Positions 1 to 5,044 of a stretch of DNA of 5,044 nt are shown one piece after another. Below the pieces are notes generated by a model. That model worked only from the letters and a program-made list of their open reading frames with translations, made no database searches and was not told where the DNA came from. A program made the position numbers and the translations under genes. This DNA comes from Escherichia coli (GTDB lineage: Bacteria; Pseudomonadota; Gammaproteobacteria; Enterobacterales; Enterobacteriaceae), in NCBI RefSeq assembly GCF_003334315.1, contig NZ_QOWR01000098.1; one strand, 5' to 3'. Within the stretch, counting starts at the first letter, position 1. Each line of letters opens with the position of its first letter.

Positions 1-650
<650 letters not shown>

Positions 651-694
651 TTACTCACAAATTGCCGGAAGTGATCCGGTATGAATATTGCGAG

Positions 695-1120
695 TCAATG
701 CACAGCCACAATATTTCCTGCAGGGCCACCACGATTCATCTGGTTGAAACCAGCGATCGCCACTGCGACAAAATCATCAGCGTCTCTCACCAGTCGTTCC
801 CGCGTCTCCACTAGTTCCCGAAAATAGGCTGAGCTATGGCTGCGCATTCGGGCCACCAGCAGAGGTGGCATTGCTTTTTCGATAGCTGGTAACAACGCCT
901 GAATTTTTTCAACTGCATCAGGGGTGTCTTTCTCTACCCAGCGGAAAATTTTCTGGGTATTGCGAGCCAGGGCTTCCGGATGGCTGTCGTCATACAGTTC
1001 TGGGAACGTCATACCCAGTTCAAAATAAGCCCTGGTTATTTCAGCTGCCGGAACTTTTTCACCGTCCGGATGCGCCCAGGCATTCATCGCCATGCGGATG
1101 TGTTCATGCTTGATTTTCAT
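695..1120 (-). CDS. ydaT: YdaT-like protein (CII-type regulator of Rac-like prophages)
   Basis: 141-aa minus-strand ORF beginning MKIKHEHI, with ATG at 1120-1118 preceded by AGGAG at 8-nt spacing. It overlaps the 3' end of the upstream ydaS-like gene by 17 bp, the arrangement expected for the ydaS-ydaT pair. Identity rests on remembered sequence similarity and synteny. Confidence 0.7.
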   Translation of the reverse strand: MKIKHEHIRMAMNAWAHPDGEKVPAAEITRAYFELGMTFPELYDDSHPEALARNTQKIFRWVEKDTPDAVEKIQALLPAIEKAMPPLLVARMRSHSSAYFRELVETRERLVRDADDFVAVAIAGFNQMNRGGPAGNIVAVH

Positions 1121-1385
1121 GAATCAAGCTCCTAGAAAGTGGTTGTGTTAACATTTTGGTATCTTCCAGCTCGGGCCAAATATTCATCCAATCAAAAGGC
1201 CTTAGTTGCTGACGTGTAACTTCACCATTACTGGCTCGCTCAATAAGGACACATAACGATGCCCCTAACACTTGACCTTTACTCAATGCCTTTCTTAGAT
1301 AACCGATGCTGGTACCACACTCGCATGCAAACATACGCTGTTCATCTGACGAAAGAGAATTGAGAAATATTCTTAATTCTTCCAT
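1104..1385 (-). CDS. ydaS: Cro/CI-type HTH DNA-binding protein, YdaS-like
   Basis: 93-aa minus-strand ORF with ATG at 1385-1383 preceded by TAAGGAGTAGCT (AGGAG about 7 nt upstream). It is divergent from the repressor gene across a 100-bp operator region and is followed by overlapping ydaT. The length differs from my recollection of K-12 YdaS (about 98 aa), so this may be an allelic variant. Confidence 0.6.
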   Translation of the reverse strand: MEELRIFLNSLSSDEQRMFACECGTSIGYLRKALSKGQVLGASLCVLIERASNGEVTRQQLRPFDWMNIWPELEDTKMLTQPLSRSLIHENQA

Positions 1386-1415
1386 AGCTACTCCTTAGTA
1401 AACACAGCAAAGAAC

Positions 1416-1490
1416 ACCCATAGGTAAACAAAAGTCAATACCCACAGGTTGTTTACCTTGCAGTAATCGCATCTATTATTTACCTATGGA
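1416..1490. promoter_or_regulatory. Divergent control region between ydaS and racR with three operator-like sites sharing the core AGGTAAA / CCATAGGTAAA
   Basis: Site A is ccataggtaaacaa at 1418-1432. Site B is its reverse complement ttgtttacct at 1449-1458. Site C is tttacctatgg at 1479-1489 (reverse complement ccataggtaaa), overlapping the racR ATG. On the minus strand a -35-like TTGACT (plus 1433-1438) faces ydaS, and a TATTAT -10-like hexamer at 1474-1479 faces racR. Confidence 0.55.
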
Positions 1491-1905
1491 CAAATATGAA
1501 TTTAGACGACAGCAACTCATCAAAATTCGTGATGAGAAATGCGATGGTAAAGCGGTTAACGTGGCCAGAAAGATCGGGCGCGAGCCTTCTTATGTATCAA
1601 GAATGTTGTACCCAGAGGGGAAAAAGGGAAAAAAACGGATCGCTGATGATATGGTGGAGATTATCGAAGAGTCCTTTGGGTTACCCCGGGGATGGATGGA
1701 TGGTATCGTTTCATCATCAACGAACACAGCCTCCAGTTATGAAACAAGGGTTCTAACGCCACGACAACGTATTTTTTTAGATCTCTTAGACGAACTGCCA
1801 GAAAGTGAAGCGGATAACTTATTAAAAACTCTTGAAGAGAAAAAACAGTATTACAATATGATCTACGAAGAAATCCGTAAAAAGAAAGCACAAAACGCAT
1901 CATAG
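1486..1905 (+). CDS. racR: Prophage repressor, RacR-like HTH protein
   Basis: 139-aa ORF divergent from ydaS, in the position of the immunity repressor. There is no in-frame upstream start (in-frame TAA at 1399-1401) and no Shine-Dalgarno before ATG 1486. Operator-like sites flank the gene on both sides. The length differs from my recollection of K-12 RacR (158 aa), so I call it RacR-like. Confidence 0.6.
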   Translation: MDKYEFRRQQLIKIRDEKCDGKAVNVARKIGREPSYVSRMLYPEGKKGKKRIADDMVEIIEESFGLPRGWMDGIVSSSTNTASSYETRVLTPRQRIFLDLLDELPESEADNLLKTLEEKKQYYNMIYEEIRKKKAQNAS

Positions 1906-1950
1906 CTCACCAAACAACTAGTCACCAGTTAAGACACCGCAAAAAGTTAC

Positions 1951-1981
1951 CCATGGGTATTTACTTTTTAAATACCTATGG
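1951..1981. promoter_or_regulatory. Imperfect palindrome ccatgggtattta / taaatacctatgg downstream of racR; operator-like and related to the sites upstream of racR
   Basis: Half-sites at 1951-1963 and 1969-1981 are inverted copies (12 of 13 match) and share CCATrGGTA with sites A and C. The overlapping hexamers TTTACT (1960-1965) and TATCCT (1983-1988) could form a rightward promoter towards ydaG/ydaF. Confidence 0.45.
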
Positions 1982-2159
1982 GTATCCTTCTTTTCATACC
2001 AACCCACCCCGCCCCACAGAATGCAGGGCAATACTTCGAGTTACCAGGCAGTGGTCAGGGGTTAAGTAGCCAGCCCGAGGCGTAAGAACATGACGGCGGG
2101 ATTCAAATTTTGCAGTGCAGCAGTTAGTTCCGCCACCCGGCGTTAAGGGGAGAGATAAG

Positions 2160-2294
2160 ATGGTGCATTACGAAGTAGTTCAGTATTTGATGGATTGTTG
2201 CGGTATCACTTACAACCAGGCTGTGCAGGCTTTACGCAGCAACGACTGGGATCTCTGGCAGGCAGAAGTCGCTATACGTAGCAACAAGATGTGA
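2160..2294 (+). CDS. ydaG: Small Rac-prophage protein, YdaG-like (44 aa), function unknown
   Basis: ATG at 2160 is preceded by AAGGGGAGAG. The translation is MVHYEVVQYLMDCCGITYNQAVQALRSNDWDLWQAEVAIRSNKM with TGA at 2292-2294. It is absent from the ORF track because of its size. Length and position match my recollection of ydaG between racR and ydaF. Confidence 0.55.
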   Translation: MVHYEVVQYLMDCCGITYNQAVQALRSNDWDLWQAEVAIRSNKM

Positions 2295-2304
2295 GATTCG
2301 CAAA

Positions 2305-2460
2305 ATGCAAAAAATCGACCTCGGCAACAACGAATCCCTGGTGTGCGGCGTGTTCCCCAACCAGGATGGAACGTTCACTGCCATGACGTATACCAAAAGC
2401 AAAACATTTAAAACCGAAACTGGTGCGCGCCGATGGTTGGAGAAGCACACAGTAAGCTAA
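2305..2460 (+). CDS. ydaF: Small Rac-prophage protein, YdaF-like (51 aa), function unknown
   Basis: ATG at 2305 with a weak Shine-Dalgarno. The translation is MQKIDLGNNESLVCGVFPNQDGTFTAMTYTKSKTFKTETGARRWLEKHTVS with TAA at 2458-2460. Its 3' end overlaps the convergent sieB stop by 4 bp. Confidence 0.55.
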   Translation: MQKIDLGNNESLVCGVFPNQDGTFTAMTYTKSKTFKTETGARRWLEKHTVS

Positions 2461-2945
2461 CGATTAAAACGTCTACTCCTGCTGTTCCAGAATAACTTCA
2501 TAAAATGGGAGTATTTTTCGGTGACGAGATAATAAGAACAGTTTGCGCTATCACTCTGATGTTGAATGATGCCCTTCCGTTCTAATTTTTTCATAACCGG
2601 GTTACGGCAAGGAGAAGTGATAATAAGATTTCCTGTTTTAAGGAAATCTTTAAATACAGCGATTTCTTTCTCAGATAAACGAAGCAATACTCGTTGCTCT
2701 GGTAGTAATGAATAATGCTTTTGAATATGTGCTCGCAATCTTGAGAAGGAAATGGCGACCACGAAAGAAAAGGCAAAAACGATAATCTGAAAGAGCCAAG
2801 GCATTTCAGTATAAGCATTGAATGCGACAGTAAACTCTTTCGGTATCAGCCAGAGAGTGAGACCAAAAATGATAATCGTATACATAAGTCTTTCGAGTGG
2901 CTCGTTAGCAAAAAGTTTCAACAATGGAGTAAATACATCCAACAT
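2457..2945 (-). CDS. sieB: Superinfection exclusion protein SieB (162 aa, membrane protein)
   Basis: This is the C-terminal 162 codons of track ORF 2457..3371, starting at ATG 2945-2943 (MLDVFTPLLKLFANEPLERLMYTIIIFGLTLWLIPKEF...), with GAGAG about 8 nt upstream. The hydrophobic N-terminal half is consistent with a membrane protein. The upstream 142 codons of the track ORF are antisense to recE and are rejected. Confidence 0.8.
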   Translation of the reverse strand: MLDVFTPLLKLFANEPLERLMYTIIIFGLTLWLIPKEFTVAFNAYTEMPWLFQIIVFAFSFVVAISFSRLRAHIQKHYSLLPEQRVLLRLSEKEIAVFKDFLKTGNLIITSPCRNPVMKKLERKGIIQHQSDSANCSYYLVTEKYSHFMKLFWNSRSRRFNR

Positions 2946-3093
2946 ATCAATAACTCTCAACTGTAAGGGTATTGAAATGTTAACACAAGCTCTCGCTGTA
3001 GGGGTATAGCCGAGACCACCGAAGCCCGGAGGTGGTGAAATAAAACCGGGCACAACACGAAGGCGCATTTCCGATATCCATAAAGAGTCGGTC

Positions 3094-4188
3094 TTGTCTG
3101 TTAAATTTAAATGGTGGAGTGCGCCTCCGGTTGTAAATAACGACATTGCTGTGTGTAGTCCTGGCGGCATCAGTTTTTTTCTTGAAGTTCGGCTGATGTC
3201 CGCCCTTTTTAAAGTGAATTTTGTGATGCGGTGGGTTGAAGCTAAGGAAAATGATCCGGAGGAAATGGAAGGCGCTGAACATCCGCACAATGAGAATGCT
3301 GGCAGCGATCCGCATCGCGATTGCAGTGATGAAACTGGCGAAGTCGCAGATCCCGTAATCGTAGAAGACATAGAGCCAGGTATTTATTACGGAATTTCGA
3401 ATGAGAATTACCACGCGGGTCCCGGTATCAGTAAGTCTCAGCTCGATGACATTGCTGATACTCCGGCACTATATTTGTGGCGTAAAAATGCCCCCGTGGA
3501 CACCACAAAGACAAAAACGCTCGATTTAGGAACTGCTTTCCACTGCCGGGTACTTGAACCGGAAGAATTCAGTAACCGCTTTATCGTAGCACCTGAATTT
3601 AACCGCCGTACAAACGCCGGAAAAGAAGAAGAGAAAGCGTTTCTGATGGAATGCGCAAGCACAGGAAAAACGGTTATCACTGCGGAAGAAGGCCGGAAAA
3701 TTGAACTCATGTATCAAAGCGTTATGGCTTTGCCGCTGGGGCAATGGCTTGTTGAAAGCGCCGGACACGCTGAATCATCAATTTACTGGGAAGATCCTGA
3801 AACAGGAATTTTGTGTCGGTGCCGTCCGGACAAAATTATCCCTGAATTTCACTGGATCATGGACGTGAAAACTACGGCGGATATTCAACGATTCAAAACC
3901 GCTTATTACGACTACCGCTATCACGTTCAGGATGCATTCTACAGTGACGGTTATGAAGCACAGTTTGGAGTGCAGCCAACTTTCGTTTTTCTGGTTGCCA
4001 GCACAACTATTGAATGCGGACGTTATCCGGTTGAAATTTTCATGATGGGCGAAGAAGCAAAACTGGCAGGTCAACAGGAATATCACCGCAATCTGCGAAC
4101 CCTGTCTGACTGCCTGAATACCGATGAATGGCCAGCTATTAAGACATTATCACTGCCCCGCTGGGCTAAGGAATATGCAAATGACTAA
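3094..4188 (+). CDS. recE: Exodeoxyribonuclease VIII (RecE), N-terminally truncated: only the C-terminal exonuclease-domain portion is present
   Basis: The translation contains [35 protein letters not shown] ... [10 protein letters not shown], which I recognise as the C-terminal region of Rac RecE. The stop at 4186-4188 overlaps the recT start, as in the native recET operon. The reading frame is open from 3010. The track start at 3094 is TTG; the first in-frame ATGs are at 3196 and 3226 and neither has a good Shine-Dalgarno, so the true start, if any, is uncertain. Confidence 0.8.
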
Positions 4189-4867
4189 GCAACCACCAAT
4201 CGCAAAAGCCGATCTGCAAAAAACCCAGGGAAACCGTGCACCAGCAGCAGTTAAAAATAGCGACGTGATTAGTTTTATTAACCAGCCATCAATGAAAGAG
4301 CAACTGGCAGCAGCTCTTCCACGCCATATGACGGCTGAACGTATGATCCGTATCGCCACCACAGAAATTCGTAAAGTTCCGGCGTTAGGAAACTGTGACA
4401 CTATGAGTTTTGTCAGTGCGATCGTACAGTGTTCACAGCTCGGACTTGAGCCAGGTAGCGCCCTCGGTCATGCATATTTACTGCCTTTTGGTAATAAAAA
4501 CGAAAAGAGCGGTAAAAAGAACGTTCAGCTAATCATTGGCTATCGCGGCATGATTGATCTGGCTCGCCGTTCTGGTCAAATCGCCAGCCTGTCAGCCCGT
4601 GTTGTCCGTGAAGGTGACGAGTTTAGCTTCGAATTTGGCCTTGATGAAAAGTTAATACACCGCCCGGGAGAAAACGAAGATGCCCCGGTTACCCACGTCT
4701 ATGCTGTCGCAAGACTGAAAGACGGAGGTACTCAGTTTGAAGTTATGACGCGCAAACAGATTGAGCTGGTGCGCAGCCTGAGTAAAGCTGGTAATAACGG
4801 GCCGTGGGTAACTCACTGGGAAGAAATGGCAAAGAAAACGGGTGATGATGCCAACTTACTGATTTAG
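4181..4867 (+). pseudogene. recT: recT (RecT single-strand annealing recombinase) interrupted by IS1 after codon 220
   Basis: ATG at 4181 is preceded by AAGGAA. The translation [35 protein letters not shown] ... THWEEMAKKT matches RecT as I remember it. From 4841 the frame runs into the IS1 terminal sequence, adding GDDANLLI before a stop at 4865-4867. The track ORF start at 4124 is a spurious upstream extension. Confidence 0.85.
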
Positions 4868-5044
4868 TGTATGATGGTGTTTTTGAGGTGCTCCAGTGGC
4901 TTCTGTTTCTATCAGCTGTCCCTCCTGTTCAGCTACTGACGGGGTGGTGCGTAACGGCAAAAGCACCGCCGGACATCAGCGCTATCTCTGCTCTCACTGC
5001 CGTAAAACATGGCAACTGCAGTTCACTTACACCGCTTCTCAACC
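4841..5044 (+). mobile_element. IS1 insertion sequence, left end (IRL plus the first ~200 bp); continues past the window edge
   Basis: ggtgatgatgccaacttactgatttagtgtatgatggtgtttttgaggtgctccagtggcttctgtttctatcagctgtccc... matches the IS1 left terminal inverted repeat and the insA leader as I remember them, with one mismatch in the IR (GAT where I recall GCT). The exact junction is ambiguous by about 1 bp. Confidence 0.9.
4896..5044 (+). CDS. insA: IS1 InsA (transposition regulator / N-terminal transposase part), 5' partial
   Basis: GTG at 4896 is preceded by GAGGTG. The translation is [49 protein letters not shown], the InsA zinc-finger-like N-terminus. It is truncated by the window end. Confidence 0.85.

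Follow-up and report, generated by a model that had tools for sequence, protein, structure and literature searches.

The locus examined here raises the question of how a C-terminal portion of recE came to lie beside sieB in a Rac-type prophage, and whether what is left of that gene is a dead remnant or an expressed nuclease fragment. The window—that is, the whole stretch of DNA analyzed, of 5,044 bp—is byte-identical to the entire contig QOWR01000098.1 of the Escherichia coli draft assembly GCA_003334315.1, and carries the early region of a cryptic prophage of Rac type, oriented opposite to the K-12 map. From its left end through sieB, the window contains the following features:

1-77: terminal segment of IS100 (IS21 family), with the contig end inside the element
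78-623, minus strand: 5' part of a phage replisome-organiser (ydaU-like) gene, cut by IS100, 99.9% identical to CP53
695-1905: immunity region of a non-K-12 type, with names taken from the CP53 annotation
695-1120, minus strand: YdaT-family gene of the immunity region
1104-1385, minus strand: Cro/YdaS-like regulator of the immunity region
1486-1905, plus strand: gene at the repressor position of the immunity region
2160-2294, plus strand: ydaG-like gene, matching K-12 and CP53
2305-2460, plus strand: ydaF, matching K-12 and CP53
2457-2945, minus strand: sieB (superinfection exclusion B), intact, 162 aa, Pfam PF14163, recognized in the list of open reading frames, in the BLAST against K-12 and by gene calling

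At the left end, window 1-84 matches the DNA beside the istA start of IS100 in E. coli TB354 (L004 6001-6082, 97.6%), and homology to the uninterrupted CP53 prophage starts at 78; the exact end of IS100 probably falls between 77 and 84. The adjoining positions 78-623 correspond to CP53 L003 4179-4724, inside an annotated 356-aa gene at 3654-4724, and within that replisome-organiser gene a direct repeat of 47 bp, imperfect at 85% identity, is present at 184-229 and 454-499, in CP53 and TB354 as well. A BLAST against the MG1655 Rac prophage returned no K-12 Rac homology to the left of 1995, near which position a mosaic boundary is apparent: the right side is 99.4-99.9% identical to K-12 Rac, and the immunity and replication genes on the left are 100% identical to the prophages of many natural E. 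coli.

The remainder of the window, from the sieB start to the right end of the contig, is made up of these elements:

2946-3233: native sieB-kilR intergenic DNA, 288 bp, ending 153 bp before the kilR ATG
3113-3210, plus strand: kilS small RNA (5' leader of the kilR operon, ended early by premature termination), placed by mapping of K-12 b4833
3233-3234: deletion junction, blunt, 0 bp of microhomology, 2,641 bp missing
3196-4188, plus strand: fusion reading frame of 13 residues plus RecE V550-D866, with a second ATG at 3226 and the ATG of recE codon 560 at 3265
3234-4188, plus strand: recE remnant (codons 550-866 and stop, preceded by the third base of codon 549), 99.94% identical to K-12 recE
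4181-4867, plus strand: recT cut by IS1, encoding residues 1-220 plus GDDANLLI (228-aa product RCQ21649.1)
4841-5044, plus strand: left end of IS1 with the insA start, 99.5% identical to IS1 copies, Pfam Zn_ribbon_InsA, with the contig ending inside the element

When aligned with the K-12 MG1655 Rac prophage by BLAST, this part of the window resolved into two collinear blocks that place the breakpoint exactly at 3233|3234. The left block (window 1995-3233, MG1655 Rac L001 10621-9383; 99.4% identity) covers K-12 ydaG through sieB plus kilS, and the right block (window 3234-4841, L001 6741-5134; 99.94%) extends from the third base of recE codon 549 into recT; so that, with respect to K-12, the window lacks 2,641 bp comprising 152 bp of the kilR leader, kilR, ydaE, racC, and recE nt 1-1646 (codons 1-549). 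The junction itself reads ...GATGCGGTG|GGTTGAAGC..., and the deletion allele is marked by the sequence AATTTTGTGATGCGGTGGGTTGAAGCTAAGGAAAATG. Synteny from sieB to recT and near-identity with K-12 Rac are thus both found across the two blocks, with kilR, ydaE, racC and a full-length recE all absent from the window: the locus is a deletion derivative of a Rac-type kilR-recET early operon.

These results, along with those from the sister contigs described below, bear out the proposal of an earlier note, made from the letters of the window, that kilR, ydaE, racC and the 5' part of recE had been deleted and the C-terminal exonuclease domain left beside sieB. The sieB start at 2945, the recE frame open from 3010 (the TAG occupying 3007-3009) and the ATGs at 3196 and 3226 were all found as that note had given them, and the alignment with K-12 Rac located the breakpoint, which the note had regarded as not placeable by eye, and revealed no microhomology there. 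As to the extent of the loss, the note was right that DNA is missing, the measured 2,641 bp replacing its figure of roughly 2 kb; while the 150 bp that it had seen between sieB and the recE frame reach as far as the earliest start codon in that frame (TTG 3094), the native intergenic DNA actually continuing for 288 bp up to the junction.

A look-up of the unusual 228-residue RecT::IS1 product gave two sister draft contigs, MTYF01000106.1 (L006) and SAHT01000088.1 (L007). In both, 3,211-3,233 nt of the left arm and 1,726-1,811 nt of the right arm show 100% identity to the window, which identity goes beyond chance resemblance, and both contain the same IS100 and recT::IS1 junctions; yet the 2,641 bp are still present in them, where kilR, ydaE and racC are intact and RecE has 866 aa. 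The nearest complete genome, CP53—99.94% identical over window 78-3233 and 99.88% over 3234-4841—likewise possesses kilR, ydaE, racC and a recE of 866 codons in the space that separates the two blocks, and the 2,641-bp segment is identical among L006, L007 and CP53. Since the sisters share both IS insertions and nevertheless retain the segment, the deletion is strain-specific and the latest of the lesions: the IS100 and IS1 insertions came first and the deletion after, with zero substitutions since. At recE codon 545 (L009 position 30), just upstream of the right breakpoint, the sister lineage has GCT (Ala) and K-12 has GAT (Asp), which difference indicates that the parent of the deletion was the local lineage and not K-12.

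The same contigs bear on the possibility that no deletion took place and that this lineage naturally carries a short, nuclease-only recE beside sieB. Such an arrangement would be conceivable inasmuch as the lengths of RecE-family proteins vary, some consisting of the nuclease domain alone (PMC11611040); but sisters that are 100% identical in both arms carry the 2,641 bp, as do CP53, TB354 and K-12, and in no complete genome does sieB adjoin a short recE. The sole compact sieB-to-recE layouts among complete E. coli are those of the B lineage, which layouts still include kilR, ydaE and racC. We accordingly regard this possibility as negligible.

The junction proved to be singular in the collections that we searched. 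No genome among the 5,426 complete ones of E. coli spanned it, the best coverage of 2900-3300 stopping at 3233; no phage or plasmid record spanning it was found; the junction 37-mer had no match in species-representative genomes or in viral contigs; and none of the five possible products of the fusion reading frame was on record in exact protein look-ups, so that no second assembly confirming the junction was obtained. Many BLAST matches did start or end at query positions 334/335, as a natural mosaic boundary at the junction might cause; we rejected that idea, as a discontinuous query forces the alignment to stop there. Lesions in the 5' part of recE are, for their part, common in natural E. 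coli: several contigs have a split or interrupted recE, and many contigs in which the upstream part is frameshifted or interrupted have a called reading frame of 307 aa that starts at recE codon 560.

With the junction being present in a single short-read draft contig bounded by repeats at both ends, and with no independent record of it found (the contig that contains it is listed for two samples, which are not necessarily independent), one may ask if the kilR-recE region is in reality complete in the strain, the contig being a chimera of assembly or library preparation. Near the breakpoints, however, the longest repeat common to the joined sequences does not exceed 6 nt, and at the junction they have none in common; in the lack of a shared k-mer an assembler has no path from one arm to the other unless reads span the junction. 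In addition, both arms are otherwise base-perfect relative to the sisters, and we consider such an artefact very improbable.

We then considered how the 2,641 bp might have been lost. The bases that flank each parental breakpoint differ from those of the product, hence the value of zero microhomology; the closest shared 6-mer, GCTAAG, lies 6-7 nt inside each breakpoint and is not the crossover point. A slipped-strand or microhomology-mediated deletion would call for a short direct repeat at both endpoints, of which the junction keeps one copy, and no such repeat is present (0 bp shared). Nor do the data agree with an IS-mediated adjacent deletion, for both sides of the junction are native prophage DNA, with the IS100 end 3.1 kb and the IS1 end 1.6 kb away. 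Neither inverted repeats nor Chi sites were found near either breakpoint, the sole Chi in L007 being located about 2.4 kb away, and no significant DNA hairpin was found at the breakpoints, where the folds were no better than those of shuffled sequence. A blunt junction lacking both microhomology and an IS end suggests illegitimate end-joining, and we infer a homology-independent illegitimate recombination, either by end-joining after a double-strand break or by a topoisomerase-type event. A deliberately engineered deletion was also thought of and judged unlikely, in view of the lack of a scar, of endpoints that fall off the gene boundaries, and of a non-K-12 prophage with natural IS insertions.

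The other gene of the recombination module had been damaged earlier. IS1 entered recT after codon 220, producing a protein that ends in …AKKT-GDDANLLI and is devoid of the 49 C-terminal residues (221-269); and because the recT::IS1 allele is found in the sister assemblies along with a full-length recE, this lesion predates the deletion. The function of RecT has presumably been lost, and the RecET recombination pathway would not be activatable here, the module appearing to have been broken twice, with recT first.

As for recE, residues 550-866 correspond to the complete PD-(D/E)XK exonuclease domain, residues 4-265 (262 residues) of PDB 3H4R being aligned with one substitution. The fusion reading frame matches in Pfam PF12684 alone (E = 7e-29); the N-terminal Exonuc_VIII region PF06630 is absent from it and present in the 866-aa product of the sister contigs. 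The minimal functional nuclease domain of RecE has been defined as 564-866 (PMC11611040), 14 codons after the start of the retained recE.

Upstream of the remnant, the intergenic DNA (2946-3233) is 100% identical to that of CP53 and differs from K-12 by 1 nt in a G-run, which run, at window 3113-3115 and hence at the mapped 5' end of kilS, is one base shorter than in K-12 and the same in CP53. The small RNA kilS derives from the 5' UTR of kilR, and a promoter of its own has been inferred by the authors for K-12 (PMC8175672). On mapping that report and the K-12 annotation onto the window, the kilS/kilR transcription start falls at approximately 3113, preceded by a putative extended -10 element, TGTTAAATT, at 3099-3107; a consensus scan of 2850-3400 gave no plus-strand promoter-like site and no terminator, the loop of the kilS terminator exceeding the 8-nt limit of the tool. 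RNA folding did indicate that the intrinsic terminator of kilS is intact, with a strong hairpin at 3163-3210 followed by a CUUUUU U-tract. The junction lies 23 nt past this terminator and the recE remnant 121 nt downstream from the transcription start; and, as the terminator precedes the junction, only read-through transcripts could enter the remnant.

The 3' half of kilS together with the terminator stem-loop (3150-3205, plus strand) resembles the Rfam DicF family RF00039, with a score of 39.1 bits (E = 2e-7 on a 251-nt stretch, 4e-6 on the whole window) that falls below the gathering score of 48, while the single-stranded 5' part of kilS differs from DicF. On the basis of that resemblance, kilS looks like a relative of DicF positioned upstream of another cell-division inhibitor gene.

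The conditions for translation were assessed from the pairing of each possible start with the anti-Shine-Dalgarno sequence:

ATG 3196: -1.7 kcal/mol, inside the terminator stem
ATG 3226: -1.8 kcal/mol, essentially none
ATG 3265 (recE codon 560): -9.5 kcal/mol (GGAGG), with a spacing of only 1-2 nt
Native kilR, ydaE, racC, recE and recT starts: -6 to -9 kcal/mol, no problem

A Shine-Dalgarno sequence or ribosome-binding site was thus found for neither of the fusion ATGs, at 3196 and 3226. With transcripts arriving by read-through only, with these ATGs devoid of a ribosome-binding site and with the C-terminus of RecT lost, a useful expression of the recE remnant seems unlikely, and the fragment is in all likelihood a pseudogene, either silent or hardly expressed. 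The NCBI annotation of the contig calls no protein at the remnant. On the minus strand, a 304-codon reading frame (2457-3371) passes from the antisense strand of recE over the junction and on into sieB; an exact look-up of its product gave no recorded protein with an identical sequence, and it is by accident that this frame prolongs the 162-aa sieB upstream. For annotation purposes, positions 3234-4188 would best be marked as a recE pseudogene remnant, and the frame 2457-3371 should not be taken for an extended sieB.

The above considerations are also those on which an activation of the sbcA type must be judged, to which type of rearrangement the earlier note had likened the locus. According to such an explanation, a nuclease-only RecE (550-866) would be placed under the kilS/kilR promoter and, by read-through, yield an active stand-alone 5'-3' double-stranded DNA exonuclease. 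The promoter and the transcription start are indeed kept, the DNA at which Rho ordinarily shuts the operon down may have gone with the deletion, and the fusion is in frame with the ATGs at 3196 and 3226, so that, given read-through of the terminator, a working nuclease could in principle arise. Laboratory deletions that fused the C-terminal part of recE to racC, reportedly described by Chu, Templin and Clark in J Bacteriol in 1989, are said to have restored exonuclease VIII and would provide a precedent. Nevertheless, an intrinsic terminator stands between the promoter and the reading frame, the first of the two ATGs is buried in the stem of that terminator, neither of them has a Shine-Dalgarno sequence, and the ATG 3265 has a spacing of 1-2 nt; moreover, recT is interrupted by IS1 at 4841, so that RecET recombination would not ensue, and, this lesion being older than the deletion, selection on the recombination module would already have gone. 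The likeness to sbcA-type rearrangements is accordingly weak, with recE joined to an untranslated leader past a retained terminator, and we deem an activation of this kind improbable; so that, between the two outcomes that the earlier note had kept in balance, the dead remnant turns out to be much the likelier. If the fragment were expressed after all, it would constitute a natural test of a stand-alone role for the RecE nuclease domain.

The deletion might have been selected for what it removed instead of for what it left. KilR is toxic and is expressed when OxyS represses NusG (PMC5793797), and it inhibits both division and elongation (PMC12482147). As KilR acts against FtsZ and MreB and is made if Rho/NusG silencing fails, its loss could have conferred an advantage, with racC and the N-terminal region of recE being lost as passengers; and the left breakpoint does spare kilS and sieB, all of the kilR leader being taken along with the gene. 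A fitness benefit from the loss of kilR is therefore plausible. That positive selection of this sort was what established the deletion is nonetheless doubtful, for the deletion is found in one strain only, without recurrence, the sister strains have an intact kilR, and the missing segment reaches far past that gene.

With these elements one could even conceive of a domesticated, stand-alone RecE exonuclease, produced through read-through from a constitutive kilS/kilR promoter, freed from the Rho-silencing region, and with KilR and RacC discarded; which notion we would consider far-fetched. According to one report (bioRxiv 10.1101/2020.06.22.160242), a retron toxin is blocked by RacC and that retron is triggered by RecE; in the strain of the window, the retron blocker racC is gone and the nuclease domain of the trigger RecE is kept. 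If such an exonuclease did exist, it would alter the interplay of the strain with restriction or retron defences.

Taken together, the evidence argues for a stepwise decay of a cryptic prophage. A Rac-type prophage had already been disabled by the insertion of IS100 into its replication gene and of IS1 into recT; one strain then lost 2,641 bp, probably through illegitimate, homology-independent end-joining; and the leftover recE codons 550-866 now sit past the intact kilS terminator, most likely silent or barely expressed. The loss itself may have been neutral, or else favoured through the removal of KilR, the toxic, Rho-silenced inhibitor of cell division. To this reading—a strain-specific end-joining deletion with the recE remnant as a probable pseudogene, whether neutral or kilR-purging—we assign a probability of roughly 0.8. 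The locus thereby offers a clean and datable case of cryptic-prophage erosion, where the exact ancestral sequence is known from the 100%-identical sisters and the order of the lesions can be read: two IS insertions, and then a blunt, homology-independent deletion of 2.6 kb.

The known system closest to the window is the K-12 Rac prophage, which has the same gene order, a nucleotide identity of 99.4-99.9% from ydaG to recT codon 220, and an essentially identical sieB, kilS and recE nuclease domain. The window, in contrast, is without the 2,641 bp, carries an IS1 insertion in recT and an IS100 insertion in the replication gene, and to the left of 1995 contains another type of immunity region.

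A comparison with laboratory-made alleles is also in order. Chu, Templin and Clark reportedly obtained, in 1989, recE N-terminal deletions that suppress recE939 by a racC'-'recE fusion or by a fusion within recE; those deletions resemble the window in that most of the N-terminal part of recE is gone and the nuclease part is in frame with upstream sequence. In the laboratory fusions that part was reportedly joined to a translated 5' part of racC or recE with a ribosome-binding site, along with an active promoter and an intact recT; whereas in the window recE follows an untranslated leader beyond a terminator, racC has been lost and recT is interrupted.

In the E. coli B lineage (BL21, REL606 and relatives) the N-terminal part of recE has likewise been lost in nature, a PD-(D/E)XK remnant persisting there beside the intact recT of that lineage. 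The B-lineage deletion is, however, internal to recE, with kilR, ydaE, racC and the first 91 codons being kept and with a right breakpoint equivalent to window 3357; it has become fixed throughout that lineage, whereas the deletion in the window has other endpoints and occurs in one strain. In BL21(DE3) (L002 4831-5930), the recE deletion is out of frame and results in a 91-aa N-terminal reading frame plus a PD-(D/E)XK pseudogene.

Finally, the truncated forms of RecE used for recombineering or sold as an enzyme (588/602-866; 564-866; 3H4R) are all contained within the retained residues 550-866; those constructs, however, have engineered promoters and ribosome-binding sites and an intact RecT, and the window has no such signals. 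The endpoints of the present deletion are new, and the kind of allele is one already known, both from the laboratory recE N-terminal deletions and from the B-lineage deletion; so that nature yields the same kind of nuclease-domain-only recE allele as that made in the laboratory.
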